DNA from: an uncultured Candidatus Saccharibacteria bacterium
GTDB lineage: Bacteria; Patescibacteriota; Minisyncoccia; Phycocordibacterales; UBA5272
NCBI GenBank assembly: GCA_964512315.1
Contig: CAZEIK010000001.1
Coordinates: 20,408 to 84,407, forward strand
Direction: 5' to 3'
Length of the DNA: 64,000 bases
The notes beneath the pieces are model-generated. The model was not told the origin of the DNA and ran no database searches. It saw only the letters and a list, made by a program, of their open reading frames with translations. This document shows, in pieces, positions 7,117-55,699 of this stretch. Within the stretch, counting starts at the first letter, position 1; each line of letters opens with the position of its first letter. The translations under genes were made by a program, and so were the position numbers.

Positions 7117-9087
7117 ATGAAATACACACAATTAGACAGTAATGATTTTGCTTGGGTGAAGATGCAAGAAAAAGAAATACTCTCTTTCCCGGCTAAAGCA
7201 AATGCAAAGATAGTTAGCACATTAGCTGATATTAAAAATATTAAAAAAGAAGATAGGACATTCGCTAACACTGTGGCGGCCTATGAGAATGCCAACGACG
7301 CAGAGAGCAAAACTTTCCACCAGATTAACTTGTTAGGAATGGTCAGCGATAAAAAGAATATTCGTGAAGCGGCACGCAAGGCTGAGGTTGAGTTCTCCAA
7401 ATACGCAGTCGACATTGCTTATGACGAAGGTATATACAAAGCAGTAAAGGAATATTATTCATACAACTACAAAAAAGAAAAAAAGAACCTAGACAGTGAG
7501 GATGATAAGTTAATCAAAGACATGATGTTAGGCTTCAAGAGATTAGGGTTCGACTTGCCTAATAGTGACAGAGAGAAGCTAAAGAAAATAGACAAAAAGT
7601 GTAGCGAGCTTGCTAATGAGTATGATGCGCGTATCAATGAAAATGCTGATTATATATTATGTAGCAAGGATGAGTTAGATGGCATACCAGAACAAATTAT
7701 AAACTCTTTTGCGATGGAATCGGGTAAGTACAAGGTCACATTGCAATACCCAGAGTATGGACCATTTATGCGTTATGCTAAGAATAGAAAAAAGAGAGAG
7801 GAGTTATATAAGCTATTCAACAATGTGGGAGGACAGAGGAATGTGTCTATTTTAAAAGAGCTGGTGAAGTTGCGTGTACAGAGAGCTAAGATATTAGGAT
7901 ATGACAATCATGCTGAATTCAAGCTTGAGGTTCGTATGGCCAAAAATAGTAAGAATGTTTATAAGATGAAGTATGATCTTTTGAAAAATCTTTCCTCTCA
8001 ATTTAAAAAAGATTATGAGTTGATTAAGGGTGAAGCTAAATCTCTTGGGTACAAAGATGTGAAAACTTCCGACACAGGATTTATTATGAATGCCATAAGA
8101 CAGAGAGATTATGCATTAGATGAGCAAGAGGTTAGGCAATATTTCGAGTCGGGCAGTGTGATGGATTTTATGTTTGAATTCTTCGGTAATCTTTTTGGAT
8201 TCAAAGTCATAGAGTCTAAGATAAAAGTCTGGCACAAAGATGTGAAGCTATTCGAGATACAAGACAAAAAGTCCAAGTCGACTGTTGCCTACCTCGCTGC
8301 AGACCTCTACCCTCGAGAAGGCAAGTTCAGTCATGCGTGTATGATGCCAATGATAGAAGGGCAGAGACTAGATAAGAATTTATATCGCACACCTTTTGCT
8401 GTTCTAATTTGCAATTTTTCAAAGCCGAACAAGTCTGTGCCATCATTATTAACTACAGGTGAAGTGGAGACTCTTTTCCATGAATTCGGTCACGGTCTTC
8501 ACAGTCTTCTGACTGAGGCCAAATATGCAACACACTCTGGTACTAATGTCGTATGGGACTTCGTAGAGATGCCGAGCCAAATAATGGAGCAGTGGGTAAC
8601 CGAACCACAAATACTCAAGAGTCTAGGCAAGCATTACAAGACAGGCGCACCTATGCCAAGCGAGCTGATTAACAAAATAGTAAATGCTAACAAATTGTTC
8701 CAGTCCGTCTTCTATACTAAGCAGTCCATACAAGCGCTATTAGACCTAGACCTCTACACAGGAGTTACCACTGACCCGGTCAAACATTTTCATTCACTCA
8801 TGAGTCAGTACATGTTGCCCGAGTCCAAAGGTGTACTGTTTGCCTCTAGATTCTCACACATTGTTGGCGGCTATGACGCGGGCTACTATTCATATCTCTG
8901 GGCAGAAAGATTGGCTCATGACGCTTTTAGTATTTTTAAAGAGGGCGGGCTCAGCAACAAGACTATAGGCGCAAGATATAGAAAAGAAATACTTTCTCGT
9001 GGTGGTAGCCGTGAGGAAAAAGAAAGCATAGAAAAGTTCCTCGGCCGAAAGCCATCCAACAAGGCTTTCCTAAATAAGCTGAAGTAG
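7117..9087 (+). CDS. pepF: M3-family oligoendopeptidase F
   Basis: HEFGHGLH zinc motif, length and conserved C-terminal region typical of M3B. Confidence 0.8.
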   Translation: MKYTQLDSNDFAWVKMQEKEILSFPAKANAKIVSTLADIKNIKKEDRTFANTVAAYENANDAESKTFHQINLLGMVSDKKNIREAARKAEVEFSKYAVDIAYDEGIYKAVKEYYSYNYKKEKKNLDSEDDKLIKDMMLGFKRLGFDLPNSDREKLKKIDKKCSELANEYDARINENADYILCSKDELDGIPEQIINSFAMESGKYKVTLQYPEYGPFMRYAKNRKKREELYKLFNNVGGQRNVSILKELVKLRVQRAKILGYDNHAEFKLEVRMAKNSKNVYKMKYDLLKNLSSQFKKDYELIKGEAKSLGYKDVKTSDTGFIMNAIRQRDYALDEQEVRQYFESGSVMDFMFEFFGNLFGFKVIESKIKVWHKDVKLFEIQDKKSKSTVAYLAADLYPREGKFSHACMMPMIEGQRLDKNLYRTPFAVLICNFSKPNKSVPSLLTTGEVETLFHEFGHGLHSLLTEAKYATHSGTNVVWDFVEMPSQIMEQWVTEPQILKSLGKHYKTGAPMPSELINKIVNANKLFQSVFYTKQSIQALLDLDLYTGVTTDPVKHFHSLMSQYMLPESKGVLFASRFSHIVGGYDAGYYSYLWAERLAHDAFSIFKEGGLSNKTIGARYRKEILSRGGSREEKESIEKFLGRKPSNKAFLNKLK

Positions 9088-12803: not shown

Positions 12804-13169
12804 TTAGTAAGGTATTTTACACTCTTCAAAGCAGTGTGCATCGCGGTTAAGTTTGTATATACGATTTCTTCCAATGGTTTGGCTTTCCACCGCGTCGACA
12901 GACTGGAGAACTTGTAAGTGATGTGTGATTGTTGGTTGTTGCAAATTCATTTGTTCTGTTATTTCTCCAACAGTCATTCCTTCTTTTGTTTTGCCGAGCA
13001 TACAGACTAGGTTGTATCTACTGCGTTCCCCGACAACTTTGAAGCAGTCAGGGCAGAGCTCTTTTTCACTCGATACTTTTTTAGGAACCCATTCTGGAAC
13101 AGGGTATGTTTTTTGTTTTTCAGTATTTTTTGGTTTTTTTGGGCTTATCCCCAGCTGTTTTCTATTCAT
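12804..13169 (-). CDS. ArsR/SmtB-family HTH transcriptional regulator with extra Cys pairs
   Basis: LQQPTITHHLQVL recognition-helix motif; divergent from nrdD. Confidence 0.55.
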   Translation of the reverse strand: MNRKQLGISPKKPKNTEKQKTYPVPEWVPKKVSSEKELCPDCFKVVGERSRYNLVCMLGKTKEGMTVGEITEQMNLQQPTITHHLQVLQSVDAVESQTIGRNRIYKLNRDAHCFEECKIPY

Positions 13170-13230
13170 AGACGGTCATCTATATTATAATAAAAACTAT
13201 AGATACTTATCAATATAACATAAATATAAA

Positions 13231-15426
13231 ATGAAAACACATATACCTGTTAACATCGCTCCGAGCTTTAAAAAGATAATTAAACGTGACAGGTCACAAG
13301 TCTTGTTTGATAAGAATAAAATAGTGTTAGCAATAGCCAAAGCTGGGCATGCAACAAAAGAATTTGATTCTAATATGGCGGAATTGCTGGCAGATAAAGT
13401 TGTCACTTATCTAAACGGCATAGTTCAGGGTGATATTGTTCAAATAGAACAAGTTCAAGATGCTGTAGAGCACGTCCTGATGGTATCTCGTTTTAAAGCC
13501 ACAGCAAAAGCTTACATTTTATACAGAGAGCAACACGCAGAAATGAGAAGTTTTGCTACAATGTCATCACTCGGACTGGTTGATAATTATTTAGATAAGT
13601 TAGATTGGCAAGTAAAAGAGAATAGCAATATGGGTTATTCTCTACAAGGTTTGAACAATTACATCTTTTCAGAAGTTAGCAAAACATATTGGCTAAATAA
13701 AATATATCCAAAAGAAATACGTGACGCATACGAGGCCGGAGATATACATATACATGACTTGGGTACATTATCGATATATTGCGTTGGGTGGGACTTGATG
13801 GACTTGTTAATTACAGGCTTCAAAGGTGTTAGTGACAAGATAGAGTCAGCCCCAGCAAAGCATTTCCGTACTGCTTTGGGTCAAGTTGTGAACTTTATGT
13901 ATACGCTTCAAGGTGAAGCTGCTGGTGCGATAGCTTTTTCGAATTTCGATACATTGTTAGCACCTTTTATCCGTTATGACAACCTTAGTCAAAAAGATGT
14001 AAAGCAAGCTCTTCAAGAATTCGTCTTCAACATGAATGTTCCTACTCGTGTCGGTTTCCAGACCCCATTTTCTAATATAACTTTAGATTTGAACCCCTCT
14101 GTAAATTTCAAAGACACACCTGTAATAATAGGTGGTAAGGCACAAAAAGAAACTTATAGTGAATTTCAAAAAGAAATGGACATGTTCAACGAGGCTTTTT
14201 TTGAAGTCATGATGGAAGGCGACTCCGCAGGGAGAGTCTTTTCTTTCCCTATACCAACCGTAAACATAACAAAAGACTTTCAGTGGGATAATCCAAAATT
14301 AAAAGGATTGTGGGAGATAACTGCAAAATACGGTGTACCTTATTTTAGTAACTTTGTTAGCTCAGATATGAAGCCAGAAGACACCCGTTCTATGTGTTGT
14401 AGATTGCGTTTAGATTTAGAAGAGTTAGACAGAAGAGGCGGCGGGTTATTTGGAGCCAATGCACTTACAGGATCTGTTGGCGTGGTTACTGTTAACTTGC
14501 CTAGACTAGCTCATATTGCGAAGTCTAAAAACAAAGACTCTTTGGAGTTAGCAAAGAGAGACTTTTTCGCAAAACTCGATGAGCAGATGGATATTGCAAA
14601 AGAAAGCTTAGAAATAAAAAGAAAGTTATTAGAAAAGCTTACCGATGCTAACCTTTACCCATATACAAAGTTTTATCTTAGGAATATAAAAAGTGGTTTT
14701 GGTCAGTATTGGAAAAATCATTTCTCAACAATAGGTCTTATTGGCATGAATGAAGTATCTCTGAATCTTTTTGGAGAAAATATTGGTACACAGTCTGGTA
14801 GAGATTTTGCAGGAGAAGTTTTGGATCATATGAGGACAAGACTGGTCAAATATCAAAAAGAGACCGGGAATCTTTATAACTTAGAAGCGACTCCAGCCGA
14901 AGGAACATCCTTTCGTCTTGCTCTTAAGGATAAAAAAATGTATCCAGATATAGTTGTGGCAAATGAAAGTCTTTATAAAAAAGGAGCTAAACCTTTCTAT
15001 ACAAATTCTTCACATTTACCAGTTAATTATACAAATGACATTATTGAAACATTAAATATTCAAGATGGATTACAAACCAAGTACACAGGAGGTACAGTTA
15101 TACATTTATTTTTAGGAGAAAAGCTGACCGACTATCAATCTGTACCAAATCTTGTTAAGAAAATATGTGAGAATTATAAGTTGCCATATTTTACTATTAC
15201 GCCCACCTTCAGTGTGTGTCCTCAGCATGGCTATATATCAGGAGAATGTTTTAGCTGTGGTATGTGTGGGAACGTTTGTGAGGTCTATTCACGTATAGTT
15301 GGGTATCTCAGACCTGTTAGTCAGTGGAACGAAGGTAAACAAGCCGAGTACGATATAAGAGAAACTTATATAACAGAGCCCGTTCTTACTATTAATAGCA
15401 AAGACTTAACACAATTAGCTGCATAA
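13231..15426 (+). CDS. nrdD: anaerobic (class III) ribonucleoside-triphosphate reductase with N-terminal ATP-cone
   Basis: ATP-cone N-term, C-terminal Cys4 zinc ribbon and glycyl-radical motif RIVGY. Confidence 0.9.
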   Translation: MKTHIPVNIAPSFKKIIKRDRSQVLFDKNKIVLAIAKAGHATKEFDSNMAELLADKVVTYLNGIVQGDIVQIEQVQDAVEHVLMVSRFKATAKAYILYREQHAEMRSFATMSSLGLVDNYLDKLDWQVKENSNMGYSLQGLNNYIFSEVSKTYWLNKIYPKEIRDAYEAGDIHIHDLGTLSIYCVGWDLMDLLITGFKGVSDKIESAPAKHFRTALGQVVNFMYTLQGEAAGAIAFSNFDTLLAPFIRYDNLSQKDVKQALQEFVFNMNVPTRVGFQTPFSNITLDLNPSVNFKDTPVIIGGKAQKETYSEFQKEMDMFNEAFFEVMMEGDSAGRVFSFPIPTVNITKDFQWDNPKLKGLWEITAKYGVPYFSNFVSSDMKPEDTRSMCCRLRLDLEELDRRGGGLFGANALTGSVGVVTVNLPRLAHIAKSKNKDSLELAKRDFFAKLDEQMDIAKESLEIKRKLLEKLTDANLYPYTKFYLRNIKSGFGQYWKNHFSTIGLIGMNEVSLNLFGENIGTQSGRDFAGEVLDHMRTRLVKYQKETGNLYNLEATPAEGTSFRLALKDKKMYPDIVVANESLYKKGAKPFYTNSSHLPVNYTNDIIETLNIQDGLQTKYTGGTVIHLFLGEKLTDYQSVPNLVKKICENYKLPYFTITPTFSVCPQHGYISGECFSCGMCGNVCEVYSRIVGYLRPVSQWNEGKQAEYDIRETYITEPVLTINSKDLTQLAA

Positions 15427-15427
15427 T

Positions 15428-16117
15428 ATGTTATTTGGTGGTTTTGAAAAGTTCACTTTGATAGATTACCCAGGGAAAACTGCTTGTATGGTTTATACAG
15501 TAGGCTGCCCATTTCGTTGTCCATATTGTCACAACCCAGAGCTGGTAAGCCAGGTTTGCGAAACAAAGATTGACGAAGAAAAAGTTATAGATTTTTTAAG
15601 GTCTAGAGTTGGGCTATTGGATGGCGTCGTTATTACCGGCGGAGAGCCAAGTATGCACGGAGACAATTTGATAAATTTTATGAGAAGAGTTAAGCTGCTT
15701 AACTTTTCAATAAAGCTTGATTCCAATGGTGTCGATCCCAGCTTTTTACAAAAAGTTATTAAAGAAAATCTAGTTGATTATATAGCTATGGACATAAAGT
15801 CGCCGATGGTGAAATATATGCAAACAGTAAATAGGTCTGTGGATGTAGAAGCTATTCGCAAAAGTATAGAGTTAATTAAAAGTAGCGGTAAGGATTATGA
15901 GTTTAGGACGACCGTTCTCGATTCTTTATTATCATTTGATGATATAGATAAAATAGGTACAGAAATTTCTGGTGCCAAGAGATACTTTTTACAAAAGTTT
16001 GTATCAACAAAAACTCTTAATCCAAAGTTTGCTAAAAAGTCTACATACAAAGATGAAGATTTTATAAAAATGAAAACACTTATGGAAAGGTACGTAGACT
16101 TTTGTGGAATAAGATAA
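15428..16117 (+). CDS. nrdG: anaerobic RNR activating radical-SAM protein
   Basis: CPFRCPYCHN radical SAM CxxxCxxC motif; start 2 nt after nrdD stop. Confidence 0.85.
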   Translation: MLFGGFEKFTLIDYPGKTACMVYTVGCPFRCPYCHNPELVSQVCETKIDEEKVIDFLRSRVGLLDGVVITGGEPSMHGDNLINFMRRVKLLNFSIKLDSNGVDPSFLQKVIKENLVDYIAMDIKSPMVKYMQTVNRSVDVEAIRKSIELIKSSGKDYEFRTTVLDSLLSFDDIDKIGTEISGAKRYFLQKFVSTKTLNPKFAKKSTYKDEDFIKMKTLMERYVDFCGIR

Positions 16118-16120
16118 TTT

Positions 16121-16819
16121 ATGCTAGAAAACACAATTCAGTACATCGTTGTAAGAGTAGAAAAAGAAACGCATGATGTTTTTAGGTTAGGCCTGGCTCC
16201 AGAGGGCGGACTACTTAGTTATGTGGCAGGACAAGTTATTACAATATATTATCCAGAAGTTTCTAAAAATAAAGGCAAGGAATACAGTATCTCTAGTGCC
16301 CCAAGTGAGAATTGTTTTGAAATAACTGTAAAAAGAGTGGGAGTGTTTTCTGAGATGATTACTAGTAAAAAACCAGGGGATATTATTATCGGGTCCCTGC
16401 CTTATGGGTATTTTTATACAGAGTCAGAAGTTTCTGATTTGGTATTTTTAGCTGGAGGTATTGGAGTCGTGCCGTTCATGAGTATTATAGTAGAAACCTT
16501 GAAACTTAATCCAACTAGGAAGATTAGTCTTTTTTATTCTAATAAAAATCTCAAAGATATTGTGTTTAAAAGTAAGTTAGATAACTTGGTCAAGTTACAC
16601 AAAAGTAACTTTCATGTTTTTTATTATTTAACAAAGGAAGTATCGTGTGAGGCTGACACAAAGAGTGGCAGAATATCAGTCCAAGACGTTCTGCAATATT
16701 GTAACAACGAGACAGAGCTCTTTCTCTGTGGATCAAGCGGTTTTGTGTCTAGTTACTACAGGGCTCTTGTTCAAAATAACACATCAGAGCAAAACATTTT
16801 CACCGAAGAGTTTTCCTAG
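16121..16819 (+). CDS. FNR-family FAD/NAD(P)-binding oxidoreductase (Fpr-like ferredoxin/flavodoxin reductase module)
   Basis: R-x-Y-S FAD motif, GGIGVVP NAD(P) motif; positioned to follow nrdG. Confidence 0.6.
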   Translation: MLENTIQYIVVRVEKETHDVFRLGLAPEGGLLSYVAGQVITIYYPEVSKNKGKEYSISSAPSENCFEITVKRVGVFSEMITSKKPGDIIIGSLPYGYFYTESEVSDLVFLAGGIGVVPFMSIIVETLKLNPTRKISLFYSNKNLKDIVFKSKLDNLVKLHKSNFHVFYYLTKEVSCEADTKSGRISVQDVLQYCNNETELFLCGSSGFVSSYYRALVQNNTSEQNIFTEEFS

Positions 16820-16866
16820 GTGGTGTTATACTTTTATTAAGTTACCTTTATCTTTAAATTTAAAAC

Positions 16867-18111
16867 ATGTATTCATATATTATATTTGAAATATTATCTT
16901 GGTTGTCTGGTCTTGTGGCTGCGATAGTTTTTTTGGAGCATTTATTAAAAAGAAAGTCTATTAGAGATTTTTTTAAAAGAAAGTGGGTATATATACCAAT
17001 TATAGTTTTGGTGTTGTCATATTTTGGTGGCGTTTTATCAGATAGAACTTATTCTCCTGGGTTTGCTATGCCTATGTTCATGCACACAATGGCTCCAGGC
17101 GGGGTAGCGCCGAATTTACCTTTCGCTAATGTGATTAACTTTTTTAAAAGCCAATCTAATTTTGAAAAGGTTTCAGATATAGGAAGAGATCCTAATGATG
17201 TGCCATCAGCCTTAAGTAGAGATACATCACAAGAAGTTAAGATAAATATAAATGTTAAAGAAGTTATAAGTGAGGTATCGCCAGGAATTTATTTTAATTA
17301 TTGGACATTTGATAATGCTGTACCTGGTCCAATGTATAGAGTAAGAGAAGGGGATACTATTATCATGTCTATAACCAACGACAAGACAAGTTTACATCAT
17401 CACAACATAGATCTTCATGCCGTGACAGGTCAAGGCGGAGGAGCCTCACTTACCGACGTTATGCCAGGAGAAACCAAAACATTTAAATGGAAAGCTCTCA
17501 ATCCTGGACTTTTTATTTATCATTGTGCCATGCCAAATGTGAGTACTCATAATTCGCATGGTCAATATGGCTTGATACTTGTTGAACCGAAAGAAGGGTT
17601 AGCAAAAGTAGACAAAGAGTTTTATGTGGTTCAGGGTGAACTTTATACAATGGGGGAAATAGGTAAAAAGGGGCTAACTATTTTTGATTCACAAGCCCTT
17701 GTTGATGGGCATCCGAATTATGTTACATTCAACGGTAAGATAGAAAGCTCGCCACGTATGCACGCAAAAGTCGGAGATAAAATACGTATTTATTTTGGTA
17801 ATGGTGGTGTTAACTTAATATCTTCATTCCATGTTATTGGTGAGATATTTGACAAAGTTTATCCAGAAGGCGCAATAGGTGAAGGTGGTGCGGTTTTAAA
17901 AAATGTTCAGACAACAGCTGTGTTGCCTGGTGGGTCTACAATCGTAGAGTTTAAGGTAGATGTTCCAGGTAAATATTTGTTAGTGGATCATGCTCTAGCT
18001 AGGATGAACAAGGGAGCCTGGGCGGTGTTAGAGGTCACAGGGTCTAGTACTCCAGAAATATATTCTCCAGTATATCAAGAGGGAGAGGATATGGAAGACA
18101 TGCAGCATTAG
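16867..18111 (+). CDS. nirK: copper-containing nitrite reductase (two-cupredoxin NirK) with N-terminal 2-TM anchor
   Basis: HHHNIDLHAVTGQGG (type 1/type 2 Cu His ligands) and YHCA...H...M type 1 Cu site; N-terminal hydrophobic helices. Confidence 0.75.
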   Translation: MYSYIIFEILSWLSGLVAAIVFLEHLLKRKSIRDFFKRKWVYIPIIVLVLSYFGGVLSDRTYSPGFAMPMFMHTMAPGGVAPNLPFANVINFFKSQSNFEKVSDIGRDPNDVPSALSRDTSQEVKININVKEVISEVSPGIYFNYWTFDNAVPGPMYRVREGDTIIMSITNDKTSLHHHNIDLHAVTGQGGGASLTDVMPGETKTFKWKALNPGLFIYHCAMPNVSTHNSHGQYGLILVEPKEGLAKVDKEFYVVQGELYTMGEIGKKGLTIFDSQALVDGHPNYVTFNGKIESSPRMHAKVGDKIRIYFGNGGVNLISSFHVIGEIFDKVYPEGAIGEGGAVLKNVQTTAVLPGGSTIVEFKVDVPGKYLLVDHALARMNKGAWAVLEVTGSSTPEIYSPVYQEGEDMEDMQH

Positions 18112-18126
18112 TTAAAATAAAGTGTT

Positions 18127-18155
18127 TAAAACAGGCGCGGTTAGCGCCTGTTTTT
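18127..18155 (+). terminator. rho-independent terminator after nirK
   Basis: AAAACAGGCGCGG-TTA-GCGCCTGTTTTT. Confidence 0.75.
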
Positions 18156-18360
18156 GCGAAAGTTGTTCAGGTTGTAGGGGAGCGATGTAACCTTCCTTTG
18201 GCGAAGGTATGCAACCAGCATGCACGCCGACAACTCACTGGGGCACCTGATGAAAATAGCTTTTTTGGGTCCAAGCATTGCGACAACGTGTACGACTTTC
18301 GGTAGTGTCTTAGCGATATGTCTGAGCACTTCGCTGGAGGGAATGTAATGGTCTAACATT

Positions 18361-29249: not shown

Positions 29250-29561
29250 TTAATTTTTAAGATCTGTGAAATTTTGTCCCCACTGCCAGCGTGGTGTTTC
29301 GCCTTTCCAGTAGCATATTATTATTAGAATAATCAGAGCAAAGAAAGTTTGTATGACAAATGGTCTTATGGTGTCACTGTTTGAATGTGACACAGAGTCT
29401 AGTCTGAGAAAATTCCAAAACTCGAAAACTACAAAAGCTAGAATTACTAGCCATCCTTGCCAAGAGACAGGTATCCATCCCCAGCCATAGAGTTTTCTTT
29501 TAAACCAGAGATTTTTAGGATTGTCATTAATATATTCCCAATATTGTTTCAACATATACAC
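29250..29561 (-). CDS. small hypothetical membrane protein
   Basis: 2 TM helices, Trp-rich. Confidence 0.35.
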   Translation of the reverse strand: MYMLKQYWEYINDNPKNLWFKRKLYGWGWIPVSWQGWLVILAFVVFEFWNFLRLDSVSHSNSDTIRPFVIQTFFALIILIIICYWKGETPRWQWGQNFTDLKN

Positions 29562-29652
29562 AAGTCTATTCCGTTTGTTATTAAATTACAATTAATATTT
29601 TACTTAATCACAGGTTGGTTGATGCGAGTGATGCTATAATCAAAATAGCATT

Positions 29653-31980
29653 ATGAAAGAAGAAAAAGCTTTTGAGAAGTACGTAAGAGCGGCTAATTAT
29701 TTGTCAGCAGCTCAGATTTTCTTGCAGGATAATTTTCTTCTGAAGAGGCCGCTGAAGTTCTCGGACATTAAGCCGAGACTGCTCGGTCACTGGGGTACTG
29801 CGCCAGGTGTGAATCTGGTATATGCGCATTTAAATAGGCTAGTAAGAGATAATGACCAGGAGATGATTTTTGTACTTGGCCCAGGGCATGGCTTTGCAGC
29901 ACTGCAGGCTAATCTTTTTATGGAGGGGACATTAAGTAAGTATTATCCAGAGTATCCAAGGGATGTGGATGGTATGAGCAAGATGATAAAGATGTTCAGC
30001 TGGCCTTACGGATTCCCAAGCCATACTAATCCTGGTACGCCTGGGGCAATATTAGAAGGAGGAGAGCTGGGCTACTCATTGTCTACCGCTTATGGGGCAG
30101 TACTAGATAATCCTAACTTAATAGCAGCGGTGTTAGTTGGTGATGGCGAAGCAGAGACAGGACCACTAGCTACTTCGTGGCATATTAACAAATTCATAGA
30201 CCCAAAGACATGTGGCACGGTGCTACCTATATTGCATAGGAATGGATATAAGATCTCGGGGCCAACTATTTTTGGTAGAATGAGTGAAGAAGAATTGGAG
30301 GCACTGTTTACTGGTTATGGATATCATCCTTATTTTGTTTCGGGAGGTAAAAATGTTCATCGTGACCTGTCTGCGACACTGGATAAATGTTACAAAGAGA
30401 TACAAAAAATAAAGTCACAAGATGGGGATTTTGTTCCACGCTTCCCAATGATTATATTAACTACTGAAAAGGGTGAAGGTGGTGTAAAAGAGTTAAACGG
30501 AAGAAAAGTAGAAGGCAATTTTGCTTCGCATCAAGTGGTATTAACTGATGCTAACAATAGCAAAGAGCAGTTAGTGATGTTAGAAGAGTGGCTGAAGAGT
30601 TATAAATTTGAGGAGCTGTTCGACGAGGAGGTTGGCTTCTGCGAGGAGATAGAGTCACTAATACCCAAGTCAGAAAGAAGAATAGGTAATAATAGGCAAT
30701 GCTTCGGCGGTGAAGCGGTGTGTAAGGACTTATTCTTGCCTGATATAACGCCAGATGCAGTACAAGTTGTAGCTCCAGGCGATAACTCGTCTAGTAACAT
30801 GCGTGCAGCAGGAGCTTATCTAAAGCGTGTAATTGAGATGAATGAAGTATCTAAAAATTTTAGAGTATTTTCTCCAGATGAGACTTATTCCAATAAGCTT
30901 GATGCTATTTTCCAGAAGACCACTAGGCAATTCTTATGGCCAATCAAAAAGCAAGACGAAGACATGTCTAGGAGCGGTAGGGTCATAGAGATGTTGAGCG
31001 AGCATTCACTGCAAGGCATGATGCAAGGTTATATATTAACGGGCAGGCATGCAGTGTTCCCATCTTATGAGGCATTTGTTCAGATCGTTAGTAGTATGGC
31101 TGATCAATACGCCAAGTTCATTAGAGTCGCAAGAGAGATACCGTGGCGTGGGCATGTGGCCTCTCTTAATTATATTCTAACTAGCCCAGGCTGGGCTCAG
31201 GAGCATAATGGCTTCTCACATCAGAATCCTGGCTTCATAGATACTGTATTACAAAAACACGGCTCATTTGTTCATGTCTATTTCCCGACAGACAGAAATA
31301 GTACATTAGTAGTACTTGAAAAGTGTCTCGCTTCCAAGGAAGGCATTAACTTAATTGTCTCAGGTAAGGCCGATACCCCTGAGTGGCTCAATTTGGACCA
31401 AGCTAGAAAAATGGGAGATATGGGTCTAGCCATATGGGACTTTGCTAGCGATCAGAATCCAGATATTGTCTTTGCGGCAGTGGGTGACTATTTAACCAGG
31501 GAGTGCTTGGCAGCTATAATGATTTTGAAAGAAGATGTAGAGGGTATTCGTTTGAGGTTTGTAAATATTTTAGAACTGACTGCACTATTGCCTCAGAATG
31601 GTAAAAGATTTGAAAGTTTTAATAATTATTTTACTGAAGATAAGCCAGTTATAATAAATTTTCATGGTTATCCAGAGACTATAAAACAAATACTTTTTGA
31701 TATGGGTAGTGCGGCGGGCCGTATGTATATACATGGATACTTAGAGAGCGGGTCAACGACTACGGCTTTTGATATGCAAGTTCGTAATGAGACAAGTCGT
31801 TATCACCTAGCAATGCAGACCTTAGATATTTTGTATAAAAAGGGAGAGCTAAGCTCAGACTTGTATCAGAATCTTAAAAATAAATATAAACTTATACTCG
31901 AGGAACACCGTAAATATATTATTGAAAATGGTGAAGACCCAGAATTTATATCAAAATGGAAATGGAGAAAAATATATTAG
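29653..31980 (+). CDS. xfp: xylulose-5-phosphate/fructose-6-phosphate phosphoketolase
   Basis: 775 aa, TPP-binding GDGE motif region, conserved XFP N-terminus (LLGHWGT). Confidence 0.9.
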   Translation: MKEEKAFEKYVRAANYLSAAQIFLQDNFLLKRPLKFSDIKPRLLGHWGTAPGVNLVYAHLNRLVRDNDQEMIFVLGPGHGFAALQANLFMEGTLSKYYPEYPRDVDGMSKMIKMFSWPYGFPSHTNPGTPGAILEGGELGYSLSTAYGAVLDNPNLIAAVLVGDGEAETGPLATSWHINKFIDPKTCGTVLPILHRNGYKISGPTIFGRMSEEELEALFTGYGYHPYFVSGGKNVHRDLSATLDKCYKEIQKIKSQDGDFVPRFPMIILTTEKGEGGVKELNGRKVEGNFASHQVVLTDANNSKEQLVMLEEWLKSYKFEELFDEEVGFCEEIESLIPKSERRIGNNRQCFGGEAVCKDLFLPDITPDAVQVVAPGDNSSSNMRAAGAYLKRVIEMNEVSKNFRVFSPDETYSNKLDAIFQKTTRQFLWPIKKQDEDMSRSGRVIEMLSEHSLQGMMQGYILTGRHAVFPSYEAFVQIVSSMADQYAKFIRVAREIPWRGHVASLNYILTSPGWAQEHNGFSHQNPGFIDTVLQKHGSFVHVYFPTDRNSTLVVLEKCLASKEGINLIVSGKADTPEWLNLDQARKMGDMGLAIWDFASDQNPDIVFAAVGDYLTRECLAAIMILKEDVEGIRLRFVNILELTALLPQNGKRFESFNNYFTEDKPVIINFHGYPETIKQILFDMGSAAGRMYIHGYLESGSTTTAFDMQVRNETSRYHLAMQTLDILYKKGELSSDLYQNLKNKYKLILEEHRKYIIENGEDPEFISKWKWRKIY

Positions 31981-33113
31981 TTCTAAATATCGGTAGCTCA
32001 TCTAAAAAGTATTCGCTCTTTAGTGGCGACAAGCATTTGTATTCTGCACATTTTGAAAAAGTTGGTGATGGGTATGTAGTTAAGTATGGTATAGAAAATG
32101 AAGTCGCTTCTAATGCTTTTGAATACGGCGAGGCCGTTGAGTGTTTCTATAAAAAGGTTAATGGATTGGGGTTTGTAAAAGATAGACTTGATGTTGACCT
32201 TGTCGCCATTCGTGTCGTTGCTCCTGGGACAAAATTCCAACAAAATTGTCTAGTTGATGACGTGTACATATCGTCACTGGGAGAGGTTGCTGCTGATGGT
32301 TACTTGCATGCACAAATAGTTCAAGAGGAGATAGTGAAAGTTAGAAAGTTTTTAAATGAAGTTAAGATTGTTGCAGTCTCAGACAGTGCATTCCATTCTA
32401 ATCTGCCTCGAGTCTCTCGAAATTATGCATTACCAAAAAATATTATAGAAGAAAATGACTTGTATCGTTTCGGTTATCATGGGCTATCTGTAGCAGCTGC
32501 GGCTAGATTTTTAAAAAGTGTTAACAGATTAGAAAGTAGAGCTATAGTGTGCCACCTCGGTAGTGGTGCAAGTGTGACAGCATTGATTAATGGTCGTAGT
32601 GTAGACACTAGTATGGGATATGCTCCATTCGACGGGTTAATCATGAGCTCGAGGTCCGGTAATGTTGATCCTGGTGCAGTGTTAAAGTTATCTAAAAAGT
32701 ATAGCCCAAATGAAATAGAAAATATTTTGTATAAAGATAGCGGACTCTTGGCTATAAGTAACATATCCAAAGATATGAGGGACCTCCTGGCTCTGGAGCA
32801 GAAGGGAGACAAGAATGCTGAGCTTGCAATTAACTCTTTTGTTTATTCTGTTAAGAAGTATATTGGTGCCTATGCTGCAGCTATGGGTGGAGTAGATGCG
32901 ATAGTATTCTCAGGCACAATGGGTATAAGGTCGGAGCCAATCAGGAGACGCATTTGCTCTAGTATGAAGTTTTTAAATATTGAATTAGATCAAGACAAAA
33001 ACAAAGAAGGTCAATTCAATAAAAACACCTCTACAGAAAAGTCCGTTCCAGTTTATCTTGTAGAAACAGATGAAGCCAAAGAGATGGCGTTAGTTGCTCT
33101 TTCCTTTTTGTAG
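31956..33113 (+). CDS. ackA: acetate kinase
   Basis: ILVLNIGSSS N-terminal ATPase motif; overlaps xfp stop (translational coupling). Confidence 0.85.
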   Translation: MEMEKNILVLNIGSSSKKYSLFSGDKHLYSAHFEKVGDGYVVKYGIENEVASNAFEYGEAVECFYKKVNGLGFVKDRLDVDLVAIRVVAPGTKFQQNCLVDDVYISSLGEVAADGYLHAQIVQEEIVKVRKFLNEVKIVAVSDSAFHSNLPRVSRNYALPKNIIEENDLYRFGYHGLSVAAAARFLKSVNRLESRAIVCHLGSGASVTALINGRSVDTSMGYAPFDGLIMSSRSGNVDPGAVLKLSKKYSPNEIENILYKDSGLLAISNISKDMRDLLALEQKGDKNAELAINSFVYSVKKYIGAYAAAMGGVDAIVFSGTMGIRSEPIRRRICSSMKFLNIELDQDKNKEGQFNKNTSTEKSVPVYLVETDEAKEMALVALSFL

Positions 33114-33130
33114 AACTATACTTATAAATT

Positions 33131-33838
33131 ATGGAAGCAAGAAAAGAGAATCAAGAGTTCGAGTTACTTTGCGCGCAATTAAATGACCCGAAAGTTCTTG
33201 AAGATTATAAACATTGTGATGATAATTATCGTCCAGCATTAGTGCCTAGGATGCTGGGCAAATTACTTGTAACCGCTGGTAACATTGTATATGGTTACAA
33301 GTCATCGTATTTAAAATTTAGAGCAGTGGAGGTTATTGCTCGCGTTCCTTATCATTCTTGGGACTCGGCAATGTTCACACTTCAGACAATGTTCTACTCT
33401 AATGAGAACAAGGCAATGCAATTATCTAAAATAGCCGAGTTCTCAAGAGTGGCAGCAGAGAATGAGACCATGCATGTAATAGTTATATCTAGCATTGCCA
33501 AAAAGGAGCACAAACGTGCTGGTATATTGAGGCACACTGTTATACCGATGTTATTCGCATTCTTCTATTTCTGGATGTCATATTTCTTATATATGATAAA
33601 GCCTAGATATTCATATGAGCTTAATTATCTTTTTGAACAACACGCATTCGACTCTTACAGTGAATTCTTAGAGCTTGATGGAGAGTCTTTAAAAAAGAAA
33701 ACAGTAGATAGTGAATTCTTGAGATGGTACGGACGCAATCCGATAAGTCAGTATGACTTTTTCTTGTCGGTTCGTAACGATGAGATAATACACAGAAATA
33801 CTTCTATAAGAGAGATTGAAAGAGTGGAGAGTATCTAA
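33131..33838 (+). CDS. alternative oxidase (AOX/PTOX-like membrane diiron carboxylate oxidase)
   Basis: four AOX signature boxes in order: VEVIARVP (LETVA), ENETMHV (NERMHL), EQHAFDSYSEFL (LEEEAxHSYTEFL), RNDEIIHR (RADEAHHR), with a hydrophobic interfacial segment between boxes 2 and 3. Confidence 0.7.
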   Translation: MEARKENQEFELLCAQLNDPKVLEDYKHCDDNYRPALVPRMLGKLLVTAGNIVYGYKSSYLKFRAVEVIARVPYHSWDSAMFTLQTMFYSNENKAMQLSKIAEFSRVAAENETMHVIVISSIAKKEHKRAGILRHTVIPMLFAFFYFWMSYFLYMIKPRYSYELNYLFEQHAFDSYSEFLELDGESLKKKTVDSEFLRWYGRNPISQYDFFLSVRNDEIIHRNTSIREIERVESI

Positions 33839-33842
33839 ATAC

Positions 33843-33874
33843 AAAAAGTCGCCCGCGGAGCGGGCGACTTTTTG
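33843..33874. terminator. bidirectional terminator (AAAAAGTCGCCCGC-GGAG-CGGGCGACTTTTT)
   Basis: perfect 12 bp inverted repeat with flanking A/T runs. Confidence 0.8.
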
Positions 33875-33881
33875 TATTTTA

Positions 33882-34376
33882 TTATTTATAATGATCGCGT
33901 ATCTCGAACAATATATAGAAACCAATAAGAGCACTAACAAAAGTTCCTACAAATCCACCAAACATCAAAACCATACTGACGACACCACTTATTACACTAA
34001 GTATCTCACTGTAAAAAGCATAATCCCAACCTTTCTTTGTTCTGGCTGCCAGTCCCTTGTAAGCCATCAATAAGAATATTGCAGAAGCAAGAGATATTAA
34101 CAGAACTACAAGTAATGGTAAGCTGGCTCCCAGACTTAACACTGTTAATCCTGCTGTTAAGATCCCTCCTGTAGCAAGACCGATAACACCCAATATTCCA
34201 AACACTAGAGCGACGTAAGGAGAAACATCTACTAAGAATTTTCTTCCACCCTCGGGTAAGTGTGGAAAGTTTTTAAAGAAGTCCGCAAGAACAGACTCTA
34301 ATTTGCTAGCATGAGAGTGCACCTTGTGATGCATGTTCTCATGTGAAGCATGTTCATGATTTGTTGTATTTTCCAT
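33882..34376 (-). CDS. hypothetical 4-TM membrane protein with His-rich N-terminus (HEHASHENMHHKVHSH)
   Basis: hydrophobic helices; metal-binding-like His cluster. Confidence 0.4.
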   Translation of the reverse strand: MENTTNHEHASHENMHHKVHSHASKLESVLADFFKNFPHLPEGGRKFLVDVSPYVALVFGILGVIGLATGGILTAGLTVLSLGASLPLLVVLLISLASAIFLLMAYKGLAARTKKGWDYAFYSEILSVISGVVSMVLMFGGFVGTFVSALIGFYILFEIRDHYK

Positions 34377-34400
34377 AATATTTAAAGTATACTACAATTC

Positions 34401-35108
34401 ATGGAACAAGTACTTCTACCTTTACACTTACTAAGTTTATTATATTGTATCGTTACAATAATACGTTCTGACCTGTTGGGGTCTAAATGGTTACGCGGCA
34501 AAATAGATACGATAAATAAAGACAAATTACAAAGCCTACACAAGCAAGCTTGGATAGGATTAATATTAATGATAGCCACAGGCTCGGTATTGTTCTATCA
34601 AAGTATGGACGTGTTACTTGCTTCAGCACCATTCTATGTCAAAATGGCGTGTGTTCTGGCATTAGTAATAAATGCTTTTGCAATAGGCAGGCTAATGAAA
34701 GTTGCTACAGAAAAGAAGTTCTCAGAAGTAAGTAAGGAGGTAAAGGTTAAATTATTTGTATCAGGGTTTGTTTCTATATTTTGTTGGATAATGGCAGCCA
34801 CAGCCGCATTCTTTATCTTGCCTGAAGGTGAAGATGCTGTACTTCCTATAATAGACAATCAATCAACAACAAAAACTTTTACACTAGCTGAAGTTGCTAC
34901 ACACGGAGGAGAGGACAGTTGTTATACAGCGATCAATGGTAATGTATACGACATAACAAAATACATATCATTGCATCCGGGAGGCAAGACTGCAATTATG
35001 AGAGTTTGTGGTAATGATGGAACTGCAACATTTACTCGTAAGCATGGTGACGATGAGAAGCCAAATTTGATTTTACGCAGCATGCAAGTAGGGGTGCTTA
35101 CTCAATAA
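34401..35108 (+). CDS. membrane protein with C-terminal cytochrome b5-like heme-binding domain
   Basis: 4 N-terminal TM helices; C-terminal YDITKYISLHPGG...GNDGTATF...KHG matches the cyt b5 HPGG fold signature with the second His. Confidence 0.6.
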   Translation: MEQVLLPLHLLSLLYCIVTIIRSDLLGSKWLRGKIDTINKDKLQSLHKQAWIGLILMIATGSVLFYQSMDVLLASAPFYVKMACVLALVINAFAIGRLMKVATEKKFSEVSKEVKVKLFVSGFVSIFCWIMAATAAFFILPEGEDAVLPIIDNQSTTKTFTLAEVATHGGEDSCYTAINGNVYDITKYISLHPGGKTAIMRVCGNDGTATFTRKHGDDEKPNLILRSMQVGVLTQ

Positions 35109-42146: not shown

Positions 42147-43064
42147 CTATTTAGTACGAAGGTGTACGTATATATCCTCGATAGCACGCACAGCGTCACC
42201 TGAGGCTATATTGTTCTGATGATACAAAATATTAGTACAATCCCCAGCAGCCCAAACATTGTCTCCCGCTTGTTGTGTCCAAGGGTCTATTTTGACTCTG
42301 TTGCTGTCGTCGAGTGTGACTATGTCTTTACACCAGGCAGTGGCTGGTATCTGTCCAACCTCTACAAATATTCCAGATACTTCTAATTTGTTTACTTGCC
42401 CGTCAGAATCTCTGTAGCTGAGTGCGTTTACGAATTTGTCACCGTGTACTTCGGTTGGGACTGCATTTTCAATTAATTTGAATTTAGGATTTGATTTTAA
42501 TTTTTCAATTGTTATGGCGTCCGCTCTTGCGGCGCTCCTCGAGAGCAAGGTTACTGATTTACAATATGCAAGCAGTTGGGCAGCAGACTCGAATCCAGCA
42601 TTACCACCACCGACCACAACCACATCCATACCAGAGAAGAATGGCCCGTCACAACTAGCGCAATAAGTGAGGCCTTTGTGTTCGAATACATCCGCATTAA
42701 CGGCATCCAATTTTCTTCTCTGTGATCCGGTTGTTATAAGTAGGGCAGAAGAGGTGTATTCAGATCCATCTTCTAGTTTTATTTTGACTTGATTATTATC
42801 GCGAGATGCAGACGATACATATGAGCCATCTTTTATGTCGAGGAATTCACCTTTGTATTCCATTACGTGTTGCTTCAAGCTCTCGGCTAATTTTGCGCCA
42901 CTGATGTGCGGTGTACCTATCCAGTTTTGTATATCTTCTGAGACAGTACTTTGCCCGCCCCATTCCTTGAGAATGAGCAGTGTGCGTAGCTGCTTCCTGG
43001 CAGCATAAACAGCAGCAGATGTTCCTGCTGGCCCACCTCCAACAATAATTAAGTCATATGTCAT
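42147..43064 (-). CDS. trxB: thioredoxin reductase
   Basis: GGGPAG FAD motif, CASCDG redox-active disulfide, GGGNAG NADPH motif. Confidence 0.85.
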   Translation of the reverse strand: MTYDLIIVGGGPAGTSAAVYAARKQLRTLLILKEWGGQSTVSEDIQNWIGTPHISGAKLAESLKQHVMEYKGEFLDIKDGSYVSSASRDNNQVKIKLEDGSEYTSSALLITTGSQRRKLDAVNADVFEHKGLTYCASCDGPFFSGMDVVVVGGGNAGFESAAQLLAYCKSVTLLSRSAARADAITIEKLKSNPKFKLIENAVPTEVHGDKFVNALSYRDSDGQVNKLEVSGIFVEVGQIPATAWCKDIVTLDDSNRVKIDPWTQQAGDNVWAAGDCTNILYHQNNIASGDAVRAIEDIYVHLRTK

Positions 43065-43094: not shown

Positions 43095-43245
43095 TTATCC
43101 CCTTCCTATATATATATACATATATATACTGTATAAGATGAGATCGCCTGTTCGTGGATTCACTTTATTAGAGCTAATAGTAGTCATAGCTATTATAGGA
43201 GTATTGTCAGTAATAATAATACCGAGTTTTAGGACGGCGCTGGAT
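43095..43245 (+). repeat. copy 1 of a duplicated ~150-200 bp pilin promoter + 5' CDS cassette (TTATCCCCTTCC box, interrupted TA tract, first ~35 codons)
   Basis: ~85% nucleotide identity to 54880-55030. Confidence 0.7.
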
Positions 43246-43932
43246 AGGGCTAATGATACAAAGTTGAAACAGTTTGCTATCACATTAGATAAGAAGAATG
43301 ACATTATAAATAAATATGATTTTGAAGAGGGTTCAGGATTGTTGTCAAAAGATAGCAATGTATATCAACGAAACAATTTAACCCTCCCAGGTTCTGGTGT
43401 TACATTTAGTCAAAATACATATTCTAGTTCCTCGGCTTACTCTTTACTATTTGATGGTACTAGTTTTGTTACTTCTCAAAATAACCTACCCGTTATTGAT
43501 GGCAAGTCATTTTCGGTGTCGGTTTGGGTTAAAAAAACTCAATCTGACCCATTGAAGAAAACCTTATTTGGTAAATATTCTGGCCTTAATGGATTAGTAT
43601 TTGTTTTTAATAATAATATATTTGCAGTTGAGCGAGCAGGTTTTGTGTCTTGTTCATTGCCATATTCCAGTGATACAAATTGGCATCATTATGTTTTTTC
43701 TTTTAACTCTAATTCAAACATGGGGGTTATTTATGTTGATTCAAAAAAAGAAAATCAATGTAATATGGGAGGGGTGTATGTTGGTAACGATACTCAGCCA
43801 ATAATTTTGGGTCCTGCTATTAATGCTACTTATATGGATGATTTAAGGTTCTTTGATAAGGATATACTTTCCAGTGAAGTGCAGAAGTTATATGCCGAAG
43901 GGCTCAGTAGTGGCAAGTTTGCGAACAGGTAA
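43138..43932 (+). CDS. type IV pilin-like protein (prepilin cleavage/methylation N-terminus) fused to a LamG/concanavalin-like domain
   Basis: MRSPVRG|FTLLELIVVIAIIGVLS class III leader with Glu+5; C-terminal jelly-roll-like region shared with the 54926 paralog. Confidence 0.7.
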   Translation: MRSPVRGFTLLELIVVIAIIGVLSVIIIPSFRTALDRANDTKLKQFAITLDKKNDIINKYDFEEGSGLLSKDSNVYQRNNLTLPGSGVTFSQNTYSSSSAYSLLFDGTSFVTSQNNLPVIDGKSFSVSVWVKKTQSDPLKKTLFGKYSGLNGLVFVFNNNIFAVERAGFVSCSLPYSSDTNWHHYVFSFNSNSNMGVIYVDSKKENQCNMGGVYVGNDTQPIILGPAINATYMDDLRFFDKDILSSEVQKLYAEGLSSGKFANR

Positions 43933-54879: not shown

Positions 54880-55030
54880 CTCTTATCCCCTTCCATATAT
54901 ATATATATATATATATACTCAAAACATGAGACATCATGTTCGAGGTTTTACTTTACTAGAGTTAATAGTAGTAATAGCTATAATAGGTGTATTGTCAGTA
55001 ATAATAATACCTTCATTCAAAACAGCATTA
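54880..55030 (+). repeat. copy 2 of the duplicated pilin promoter + 5' CDS cassette
   Basis: ~85% identity to 43095-43245 including the TTATCCCCTTCC box and first ~35 codons. Confidence 0.7.
54895..54917 (+). repeat. (AT)11 dinucleotide microsatellite in the pilin promoter, 8 nt upstream of the ATG
   Basis: uninterrupted ATATAT... 23 nt; the paralogous copy at 43107-43128 is interrupted by C. Confidence 0.9.
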
Positions 55031-55699
55031 AGTAGAGCTAATGATACAAAGTTAAAACAAAATATTACCAACATAATAAAAAGGTATGATGTAATTGCAA
55101 AATGGGAGTTAGAAGAAGGGTTCGGTAATATTGCCAAAGACACATCTATCAATCAAATAGATAATACAATACAGAATAATGCCACGATACCAGGCTCAGG
55201 AGTGACTTGGTCTACAGACACATATGCTAGCTCTTCACAGTATTCACTCGCATTTAATGGTACTAACTATTTAACTACAGTTAATAATACTTATCCAAAA
55301 TTAGATGGTTCGTCATTCTCTTTTTCGCTTTGGTTCAAGAGAACTGGAGGATTTGGTGTGGGAGACAGAATGCTTTTAGCTAAGGGCACCCATGGGACAA
55401 GGCAGTGTCTTGCTGTTGGATTTAGAGATGATGAGTTGATGATAGGTCCATGGGGTCCTGAGTATATGACAGGATTGCGTATTACGGATCAGAATTGGCA
55501 TAATCTTATGTTTAGTTTTGACGCTAGCACAAACATTGTGACCGCCTATGTAGACAACAGATTAATTGGACGAGGTAACTGGGGAGGGTCACTAGCAAAC
55601 ACAGATTCATATCCGCTAAGGATTGGTACTTATGGTGGTGGTAACTTTATAGGTAACATCGACGATGTTTATTATTTTAAAGATCTTATCGTTAAGTAA
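54926..55699 (+). CDS. type IV pilin-like protein with LamG/concanavalin-like domain (paralog of 43138-43932)
   Basis: identical MR..VRGFTLLELIVVIAIIGVLSVIIIPSF N-terminus; shared downstream blocks (GSGVT-S-TY-SSS, DG-SFS-S-W-K-T, NWH, YVD, DD-FFD). Confidence 0.7.
   Translation: MRHHVRGFTLLELIVVIAIIGVLSVIIIPSFKTALSRANDTKLKQNITNIIKRYDVIAKWELEEGFGNIAKDTSINQIDNTIQNNATIPGSGVTWSTDTYASSSQYSLAFNGTNYLTTVNNTYPKLDGSSFSFSLWFKRTGGFGVGDRMLLAKGTHGTRQCLAVGFRDDELMIGPWGPEYMTGLRITDQNWHNLMFSFDASTNIVTAYVDNRLIGRGNWGGSLANTDSYPLRIGTYGGGNFIGNIDDVYYFKDLIVK

Follow-up and report, generated by a model that had tools for sequence, protein, structure and literature searches.

A divergent nrdD-nrdG-fnr-nirK locus in a Patescibacterium, with an ArsR-type regulator and a flavoprotein as candidate electron input

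Background

Among the glycyl-radical ribonucleotide reductases, the NrdD2 group was defined with an SCCR motif and includes an enzyme that uses thioredoxin (PMC4493059). The cognate reductants of radical S-adenosylmethionine (SAM) enzymes are mostly unknown, and have been tied to one particular enzyme in only two systems (PMC8941971). Similarly, the electron donor of the MIS system of iron-sulphur (Fe-S) cluster assembly was stated to be unknown in a 2026 review (PMC13066941). Among winged-helix regulators, SufR and ArnR are Fe-S sensors and functional precedents for the regulator considered here (PMC12343034). A clade of copper nitrite reductases (NirK) from the Candidate Phyla Radiation (CPR) was already described in 2017, its ligands being reported as conserved (Danczak et al., PMC5581439), and the NirK of Thermus scotoductus (TsNirK, PDB 6HBE) has a His2-Cys-Gln type 1 copper site, three domains and a serine in place of the catalytic aspartate (PMC6400189). 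All of these systems are relevant to a five-gene locus on contig CAZEIK010000001.1, within the stretch of 64 kb (positions 20,408 to 84,407) that was analysed as a whole and is referred to as the window. In this locus, a gene for an ArsR-type regulator is transcribed divergently from nrdD, nrdG, a gene for an FNR-like flavoprotein (fnr) and nirK. The reading favoured here, which is rather probable, is that these genes form a single divergent regulon, in which the flavoprotein is the electron-input module.

Results

Organization of the locus

A scan for open reading frames (ORFs) placed the arsR-like gene (121 aa) at 12804–13169 on the minus strand, followed on the plus strand by nrdD (13231–15426, 731 aa), nrdG (15428–16117, 229 aa), fnr (16121–16819, 232 aa) and nirK (16867–18111, 414 aa). 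It bore out two statements in a preliminary description of this DNA, namely that fnr begins 3 nt past the nrdG stop codon and that the regulator gene is divergent from nrdD; the spacer is 61 bp (13170–13230), and the gap between fnr and nirK is 47 nt. All five genes are real and intact. Curated family thresholds were passed by four of the five products (NrdD, NrdG, NirK and the ArsR/SmtB protein), while the flavoprotein reached no equivalog threshold. Near-identical copies of the five-gene cluster were found on several metagenome contigs. One further contig with 3.5x coverage, apparently from the window's species (L088, 623–3160), had no fnr called and a NirK shortened to 347 aa, which could reflect assembly error or pseudogenisation.

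All named homologues and genome records that were recovered belonged to Patescibacteria/CPR, the names including Paceibacterota, Nomurabacteria, Kaiserbacteria, Jorgensenbacteria and Taylorbacteria; the organism of the window is a Patescibacterium, and Paceibacteria-like. Four tRNAs were all that an Rfam scan identified; it revealed neither a riboswitch nor any further RNA element in the region.

The first two products of the operon are a class III (glycyl-radical) ribonucleoside-triphosphate reductase and its radical-SAM activase. NrdD matched NF006126 with 1037 bits (cut-off 548), TIGR02487 with 576 (cut-off 326) and PF13597 (E 1e-193), and the family models placed an ATP-cone at its N-terminus, followed by the NRDD domain. 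The glycyl-radical motif is R688-I-V-G691-Y (RIVGY), where G691 is the radical glycine; the finger-loop cysteine pair, C389-C390, lies within SMCCR, and C184 is on the bottom face. In the C-terminal Zn-ribbon region, where CxxC...CxxC ligands would be expected, the first pair reads C663-x-x-H666 and only the second, C676-x-x-C679, has that form, with more cysteines close by. NrdG matched TIGR02495 with 206 bits, against a cut-off of 131, and its radical-SAM motif, CX3CX2C, comprises C27, C31 and C34. The SMCCR of NrdD contains the adjacent cysteine pair described for the NrdD2 group. A thioredoxin-reductase-like (TrxB-like) flavoprotein is encoded elsewhere in the window (42147–43064, minus strand; TIGR01292, 234 bits against a cut-off of 343), and might help to provide reductant for a NrdD of the Cys-Cys type; a search for a thioredoxin gene in the 64 kb found none, only the TrxB-like gene.

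The flavoprotein and its operon

The fnr product contains FAD_binding_6 (PF00970) and NAD_binding_1 (PF00175) domains, and is a stand-alone, two-domain NAD(P)H flavoprotein of the FNR fold. Its motifs, K53-E-Y-S (with lysine for the usual arginine), P94-Y-G, G112-G-I-G-V-V-P and C203-G-S, include the flavin and NAD motifs that were kept across the family alignment, and approximately 100 homologues were 229–250 aa in length. The AlphaFold2 model had a mean pLDDT (predicted local distance difference test) of 94.9. A refuting condition named at the outset was that the gene might prove to be a degraded fragment of a larger flavohaemoprotein; this was ruled out by its full length, its conservation in more than 80 species and the quality of the model, which together describe a conserved, stand-alone protein.

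When the model was compared with known structures using Foldseek, Fpr, Hmp, Fre, NqrF and b5 reductase all matched with TM-scores of 0.82–0.87 at around 20% identity. In a profile search of PDB, much better matches were obtained to the reductase modules of flavohaemoglobin (2e-29), of BenC and of NqrF than to Fre (1e-14) or to Fpr (3.5e-14). Fold and sequence profile therefore identify a module that passes electrons from NAD(P)H to flavin and say nothing of the acceptor; the fold was rejected as a guide to the partner of the flavoprotein, since five types of reductase match it equally well.

The context of the gene was more specific. An FNR-centred scan, in which the family alignment was compared with one genome per species, produced 80 loci. 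The gene directly upstream of fnr was nifU-N in 76 of 78 cases (this count takes in six with overlaps of 1–4 nt), and the same operon order was observed for nifS (72/74), nrdG (65/69) and nrdD (55/58), with median intergenic gaps of -4 to -16 nt. Given these counts and tight gaps, the conserved unit is a single operon, nrdD-nrdG-nifS(misS)-nifU(misU)-fnr; in the Patescibacteria family, fnr is almost always its fifth gene and is almost always translated directly after NifS/NifU-N (MisS/MisU). The cluster is an ordinary feature of Patescibacteria and no oddity of the window. The Fe-S pair of the relatives consists of a NifS-like protein (TIGR03402, 451 bits, below the cut-off of 531) and a single-domain NifU_N protein, with no chaperones or carriers, and corresponds to the MIS (MisS/MisU) system.

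A second, NrdG-centred scan of metagenomes examined the genes downstream of nrdG, where 23 loci had nifS, nifU and fnr together and 21 had none of the three (Fisher p = 5e-13, a value that ignores phylogeny). The gene that fnr tracks most tightly is nifU/misU, and not nrdG. Rearranged operons were of three kinds: fnr beside nrdG without nifSU, in the window and in five related loci (L001, L002, L007, L087 and L089); fnr retained with nifS and nifU in the absence of nrdDG (L068 and L072); and nrdDG retained without nifS, nifU or fnr (L101 and L102). The lineage of the window lost nifSU from the operon, kept fnr next to nrdG and gained nirK at the 3' end. When it was asked whether the synteny nrdDG-fnr-nirK recurs in relatives, it did so in the same five loci and nowhere beyond the close relatives of the window; as a widespread arrangement it was rejected in favour of the five-gene unit with nifS and nifU.

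The flavoprotein family was found here only in Patescibacteria, and its nearest relatives outside the group were archaeal, at about 32% identity. In one archaeal lineage (L090, 4497–8216; also L091, L093 and L094), a 233-aa FNR-fold relative is situated between two genes for B12-binding radical-SAM proteins, the best matches of which were HpnJ/BchE-like and all below cut-off. A second, distinct FNR-like ORF (233 aa, with an RRAYS motif) was observed in another locus, convergent with arsR (L069, 1160–1861). The locus L076 contains arsR-nirK and fnr, with neither nrdDG nor nifSU, and has a 134-aa ORF without family match (7577–7981) between the arsR operator region and fnr.

Regulator and operator

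The divergent gene encodes a winged-helix protein of the ArsR/SmtB family, according to its profile matches (NF033788, 56.2 bits with a cut-off of 55; HTH_20 and HTH_5 also match) and its AlphaFold2 model, for which the top Foldseek matches were CzrA, SmtB and ArsR. Its cysteines are C39 and C42 (CPDC), C56, and C113 and C117 (AHCFEEC). All five were invariant in an alignment of 46 sequences; among 32 orthologues from the related loci, the four that make up CxxC and CxxxC were invariant, and C56 was present in 31. Alignments with ArsR proteins from PDB ended at about residue 109, before the C-terminal CFEEC, and the alignments printed showed no counterpart of CPDC. The protein has no CVC motif, and the printed alignments showed none of the characterised sensory sites (alpha3 CxC, alpha3N, alpha5 D/H/E and the alpha2-alpha5 dithiol). 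There were 685 homologues of the regulator, with only generic names among those listed.

Comparison of the arsR-nrdD spacers of relatives identified a palindrome, ATAGAY-N4-RTCTAT, usually in two copies. In the window, the first predicted operator box, ATAGACGGTCATCTAT (13168–13183), matches it exactly and overlaps the start codon of arsR, while the second, ATAGATACTTATCAAT (13199–13214), has one mismatch and overlaps the -35-like TTGATA of the putative arsR promoter. This sigma-70-like element (13184–13213, minus strand; TTGATA-18-TATAAT, 11/12) is a consensus match only; it is directed towards arsR, lies between the boxes, and was the best and only strong match of the region. The predicted operator occurred no more than 260 bp upstream of nrdD in each of the 27 loci that have a divergent arsR, but in just 1 of the 30 that lack one (Fisher p = 2e-15; background 0.003 per 270 bp), and two boxes were found in 17 of 57 related loci. 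The co-occurrence is strong evidence for a cognate pair of regulator and operator that controls both transcription units.

The ArsR-like protein would accordingly bind both boxes in the spacer and control its own gene together with nrdD-nrdG-fnr-nirK. It is likely to be a repressor, and the conserved cysteines suggest that it could respond to redox state, oxygen, nitric oxide (NO) or Fe-S status; these cysteines might hold an Fe-S cluster, a metal or simply a structural Zn, or might form a thiol-disulfide switch.

When the operator was sought across the whole window, only the two boxes between arsR and nrdD were credible; there were 26 sites with two mismatches, where 14.7 ± 4 were expected, i.e., near chance. 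One operator-like sequence, ATATACACAAGTCTAT (29554–29569), lies approximately 85 bp upstream of a phosphoketolase gene (xfp); the invariant G at position 4 is broken, and this is within chance expectation and probably not a site.

Of the 80 FNR-centred loci, eight had a nirK gene at a distance of up to 8 kb, and every one of these also contained the regulator (hypergeometric p = 1.5e-4). The arrangements differed. In the lineage of the window, a NirK with glutamine at the axial position of the type 1 copper site (Gln-type) is encoded by the last gene of the nrdD operon; in L082, a NirK with axial methionine (Met-type) follows fnr; and a Met-type arsR-nirK operon, with gaps of 3–15 nt, was observed in L042, L047, L054, L060 and L076, with a similar arrangement in L081, L104 and L111. 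Two types of NirK in at least three arrangements, all with the same control region, point to selection rather than chance.

Copper nitrite reductase

The preliminary description had identified a copper nitrite reductase with clear type 1 and type 2 copper ligand motifs, and an N-terminal anchor of two helices. The enzyme is a genuine NirK: it scored 298.3 bits with TIGR02376 (cut-off 296.3), its best solved relative was AniA (PDB 1KBV, E 1e-96), and the alternative of a laccase or other multicopper oxidase was rejected, given that those models scored 21–49 bits with cut-offs above 470 and that all NirK catalytic residues are present. Alignment to AniA placed the type 2 ligands at H184, H219 and H375, and the catalytic residues at D182 and H322. 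The type 1 histidines and cysteine are also present; the axial ligand, however, is not methionine, such that the type 1 set reads His179, Cys220, His228 and Gln233 and departs from the canonical His2-Cys-Met.

This substitution is shared by all 120 of the closest NirK homologues. Among 150 representatives of the nearest clusters at 50% identity, the axial residue was Met in 125, Gln in 5, Leu in 4 and Ala in 1; the representatives with Leu or Ala (P0366, P0372, P0436, P0488 and P0379) show that natural variation is wider than Met and Gln.

A hydropathy scan confirmed the helical-hairpin membrane anchor (16879–17040, plus strand), which comprises a first transmembrane helix at residues ~5–24, a loop rich in lysine and arginine (25–40) and a second helix at ~41–58. 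It was kept in every closest homologue inspected (20 of 120). With two hydrophobic helices and a K/R-rich loop between them, the positive-inside rule predicts an N-out, loop-in topology with the catalytic domain facing outward. AniA, for its part, is a lipoprotein. Between the anchor and the catalytic domain is a Met/His-rich linker, FAMPMFMHTMAPGG (17062–17103, plus strand; residues 66–79), which recurs (FAMPxFMH...) in 117 of 120 Gln-type homologues and in none of 124 Met-type cluster representatives. The protein would thus be an extracytoplasmic, hairpin-anchored enzyme that reduces nitrite to NO by way of a stellacyanin-like, His2-Cys-Gln type 1 copper. Neither a cupredoxin nor a cytochrome c could be recognised among the genes of the 64-kb window.

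Other features of the window

An alternative oxidase (AOX), which had been reported elsewhere in the window, was corroborated by an AOX-like di-iron oxidase at 33131–33838 (PF01786, 47 bits, cut-off 22.7; no NCBIfam match). It is preceded by genes for phosphoketolase (xfp, 29653–31980) and acetate kinase (31956–33113), and followed by an unassigned ORF on the minus strand (33882–34376) and a gene whose product has a cytochrome b5-like haem domain at its C-terminus (34401–35108). The run from 29653 to 35108 is possibly an oxygen-handling module in a fermentative Patescibacterium, and the life at oxic/anoxic interfaces proposed earlier is plausible. A DsbB-like protein (PF02600) is encoded at 690–1253 on the minus strand. 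DsbB and AOX normally need quinone, which is notable in Patescibacteria, a group generally regarded as lacking quinone biosynthesis. Two pilin-like proteins (43138–43932 and 54926–55699) each combine an N-terminal methylation motif with a Laminin_G_3 (concanavalin-like) domain.

Discussion

If the locus is a single regulon as favoured here, the flavoprotein would be a cytoplasmic protein that oxidises NAD(P)H and constitutes the electron input of the operon. Two roles may be envisaged. In the first, electrons would be supplied for Fe-S cluster assembly on a scaffold (MisU); in the second, the [4Fe-4S] cluster of NrdG would be reduced, enabling SAM cleavage. The protein may serve one or both of these, directly or through a partner not encoded nearby. 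Judging by the genomic context, assembly on the scaffold would be the best-supported acceptor, with NrdG as a second or alternative one.

Several points weigh against this interpretation. FNR-type flavins (approximately -300 mV) are usually too oxidising to reduce radical-SAM clusters unless a flavodoxin or ferredoxin takes part. Other parts of the genome could encode such a mediator; in the window and the first 94 related loci (~1.1 Mb), a weak test revealed no ORF that resembled a flavodoxin or a 4Fe-4S ferredoxin. The co-occurrence counts probably reflect, for the most part, one ancestral and vertically inherited operon, so they are not independent events, and the few independent rearrangements are split evenly between those where fnr stays with nifSU and those where it stays with nrdG. 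No nifS/nifU pair was found in the 64-kb window, so that for this genome the role in Fe-S assembly is a candidate one only. On the regulatory side, regulator and operator are both missing from about half of the related operons, and the four or five cysteines of the regulator might merely hold a structural Zn. Finally, a weak promoter-like match overlaps the start of nirK, so that nirK is only putatively co-transcribed with fnr.

A bolder and joint proposal, which is no better than tentative, is that in Patescibacteria MisS, MisU and the flavoprotein make up a self-contained, three-part minimal Fe-S machine, with the flavoprotein as the MIS donor and maybe the direct reductant of NrdG, and also that the regulator is a new sensor of a Cys4 type. 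Under this proposal, the ArsR-type protein is probably Fe-S- or thiol-based and responds to oxygen, to NO or to the redox state; in these reduced genomes it would fill the functional place of FNR, NsrR or IscR, governing the module along with the Gln-ligated, tethered NirK. The flavoprotein could, in addition, be a flavodoxin-independent reductant of NrdG.

It is unlikely that the regulator is instead a conventional thiolate sensor of a metal such as Cu(I), Zn or Cd, with NirK as its real target and nrdD affected incidentally through the shared spacer. Characterised ArsR/SmtB proteins are mostly metal sensors, the regulator accompanies every NirK-bearing locus, and the closely spaced arsR-nirK operons would fit such a role. 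Yet in about 20 of the 27 loci where arsR is divergent, the boxes before nrdD are kept although there is no nirK in the vicinity, and where nirK is away from arsR it is placed behind the nrdD promoter, which indicates that this promoter is itself regulated. The neighbourhood contains no metal-efflux genes, and the cysteine positions are unseen in the printed alignments to characterised ArsR proteins.

Concerning the flavoprotein, the model proposed initially was that of E. coli, in which an Fpr-type flavodoxin/ferredoxin:NADP+ reductase passes electrons to flavodoxin and from there to NrdG (PMC4122359, PMC8941971). Part of this stands, in that the tie to the nrdDG operon was observed across 80 species-level genomes of Patescibacteria; the designation 'Fpr-type' does not, as the match to NF008178 was 31.3 bits with a cut-off of 390. 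The model has the E. coli paradigm and the position of the gene within the nrdDG operon in its favour, structures 8DOS, 2XNJ and 1FDR were among the top Foldseek matches (TM-score 0.83–0.85), and a mediator would remove the problem of redox potential. Nevertheless, the Hmp, BenC and NqrF modules outscored Fpr in the profile search, the scan for flavodoxin and ferredoxin ORFs described above was negative, and in the NrdG-centred scan fnr was absent from nrdDG operons without nifSU. On this evidence the model was considered distinctly improbable.

Less probable again is a Fre-type reductase of free flavin or ferric iron that delivers Fe(II) to NifS/NifU and has no protein electron partner. The flavoprotein matches E. 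coli Fre (233 aa) in length and architecture, its alignment with NF005963 extends from end to end (5–231 with 3–230 of 233), 1QFJ had a TM-score of 0.83, the NAD and FAD domain models of ferric reductases (PF08030 and PF08022) match as well, and fnr is tightly coupled to nifU. But the Fre equivalog itself scored 48.9 bits against a cut-off of 230, and the motifs K-x-Y-S-I-S-S and P-Y-G-x-F resemble modules of the Hmp/PDR type, which are tight FAD binders; moreover, this model leaves both the adjacency of fnr and nrdG after loss of nifSU and the archaeal radical-SAM context without explanation. Very little credence can be given to a role in nitrogen-oxide metabolism, either at the cytoplasmic start of a route that brings electrons to NirK or as a globin-less, Hmp-like NO detoxifier: the best NCBIfam and PDB matches were to the reductase domain of flavohaemoglobin, and nirK is directly downstream of fnr in the lineage of the window and, independently, in L082, but fnr occurs without nirK in 72 of 80 related loci, the arsR-nirK arrangement puts nirK across the divergon, the predicted position of the NirK catalytic domain is outside the membrane, whereas the flavoprotein lacks both a signal peptide and a transmembrane segment, the match to the Hmp model (NF009805, 95.6 bits, cut-off 432) covers only profile positions 156–392 with no globin domain, and a gene that inserts at the 3' end of an operon simply causes the least disruption.

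The flavoprotein is a concrete candidate for the donor of the minimal MIS Fe-S system (PMC13066941), and the system bears on the manner in which radical-SAM activases are reduced without flavodoxin (PMC8941971). Patescibacteria have few recognisable regulators, and the regulator family described here can be assigned both a defined operator and a regulon of small size. The picture of CPR NirK is changed to that of a predicted cell-surface, hairpin-anchored enzyme with a non-canonical type 1 copper site, and its co-regulation with oxygen-sensitive cytoplasmic machinery argues against a simple respiratory role. The literature searched contained no description of the operon or regulator in CPR; the group-wide operon and its logic, the Cys-rich ArsR-type protein with its operator, and the variant features and recruitment of NirK appear to be undescribed there, CPR NirK itself being already known. 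The proteins are small, soluble and easily expressed, making the open questions directly testable.

Compared with the class III reductase of E. coli, the locus is alike in having a glycyl-radical reductase with an ATP-cone, an activase gene directly downstream, and an activase cluster that needs a one-electron reductant. It differs in that the E. coli enzyme uses formate (PMC4493059), whereas the NrdD of the window has the Cys-Cys pair of SMCCR, and in that an FNR-fold reductase below the cut-off of the Fpr model lies within the operon, with no flavodoxin gene found nearby. The relatives resemble ISC systems supplied by ferredoxin and ferredoxin reductase, and the two-gene MIS system, through their cysteine desulfurase and IscU-like single-domain scaffold without chaperones or carriers, and through the NAD(P)H flavoprotein gene that directly follows, where an electron donor is needed. 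In contrast to these, no ferredoxin was found in the window or in the related loci scanned, an FNR-fold protein that stands alone is the candidate donor, and the set is embedded in an nrdDG operon, from which misS and misU are absent in the window itself. Flavin reductants of radical-SAM enzymes, such as the flavodoxin domain of TYW1 and the FNR and ferredoxins that serve MiaB in T. maritima (PMC8941971), are likewise pyridine-nucleotide-driven flavin modules with a genetic linkage to the enzyme; here, however, the fold is that of FNR rather than flavodoxin, the polypeptide is separate, and no ferredoxin gene was found alongside.

The NirK of the window belongs to the CPR-specific clade (PMC5581439), and shares its two-domain core, type 2 ligands, and catalytic Asp and His with AniA of Neisseria gonorrhoeae (1KBV/5TB7). 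It is unlike both in its axial Gln in place of Met, its Met/His-rich linker and its place in an ArsR/nrdD regulon, and unlike AniA, for which the PDB gives the name 'Major outer membrane protein PAN 1', in being carried on a two-helix hairpin. With TsNirK it shares the stellacyanin-like His2-Cys-Gln type 1 copper, but that enzyme has a C-terminal cupredoxin and a Ser where the NirK of the window keeps Asp182 and has no extra cupredoxin; the two are only distantly related (E 5e-36, compared to 1e-96 for AniA).

The regulator, lastly, has the winged helix, the palindromes over a divergent, autoregulated promoter and the potential for a Cys-based sensory site in common with CzrA, SmtB, ArsR, BigR/SqrR/HlyU, SufR and ArnR (PMC12343034). 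Unlike the ArsR/SmtB repressors, it has a CxxC before helix 1, one cysteine in helix 2, and a CxxxC in a short C-terminal tail that replaces helix 5, positions that none of the characterised ArsR proteins aligned shows; it is also much smaller than SufR and ArnR. Its targets, in turn, resemble those of the ArnR, FNR and NsrR regulons, being anaerobic or nitrogen-oxide functions and Fe-S biogenesis.

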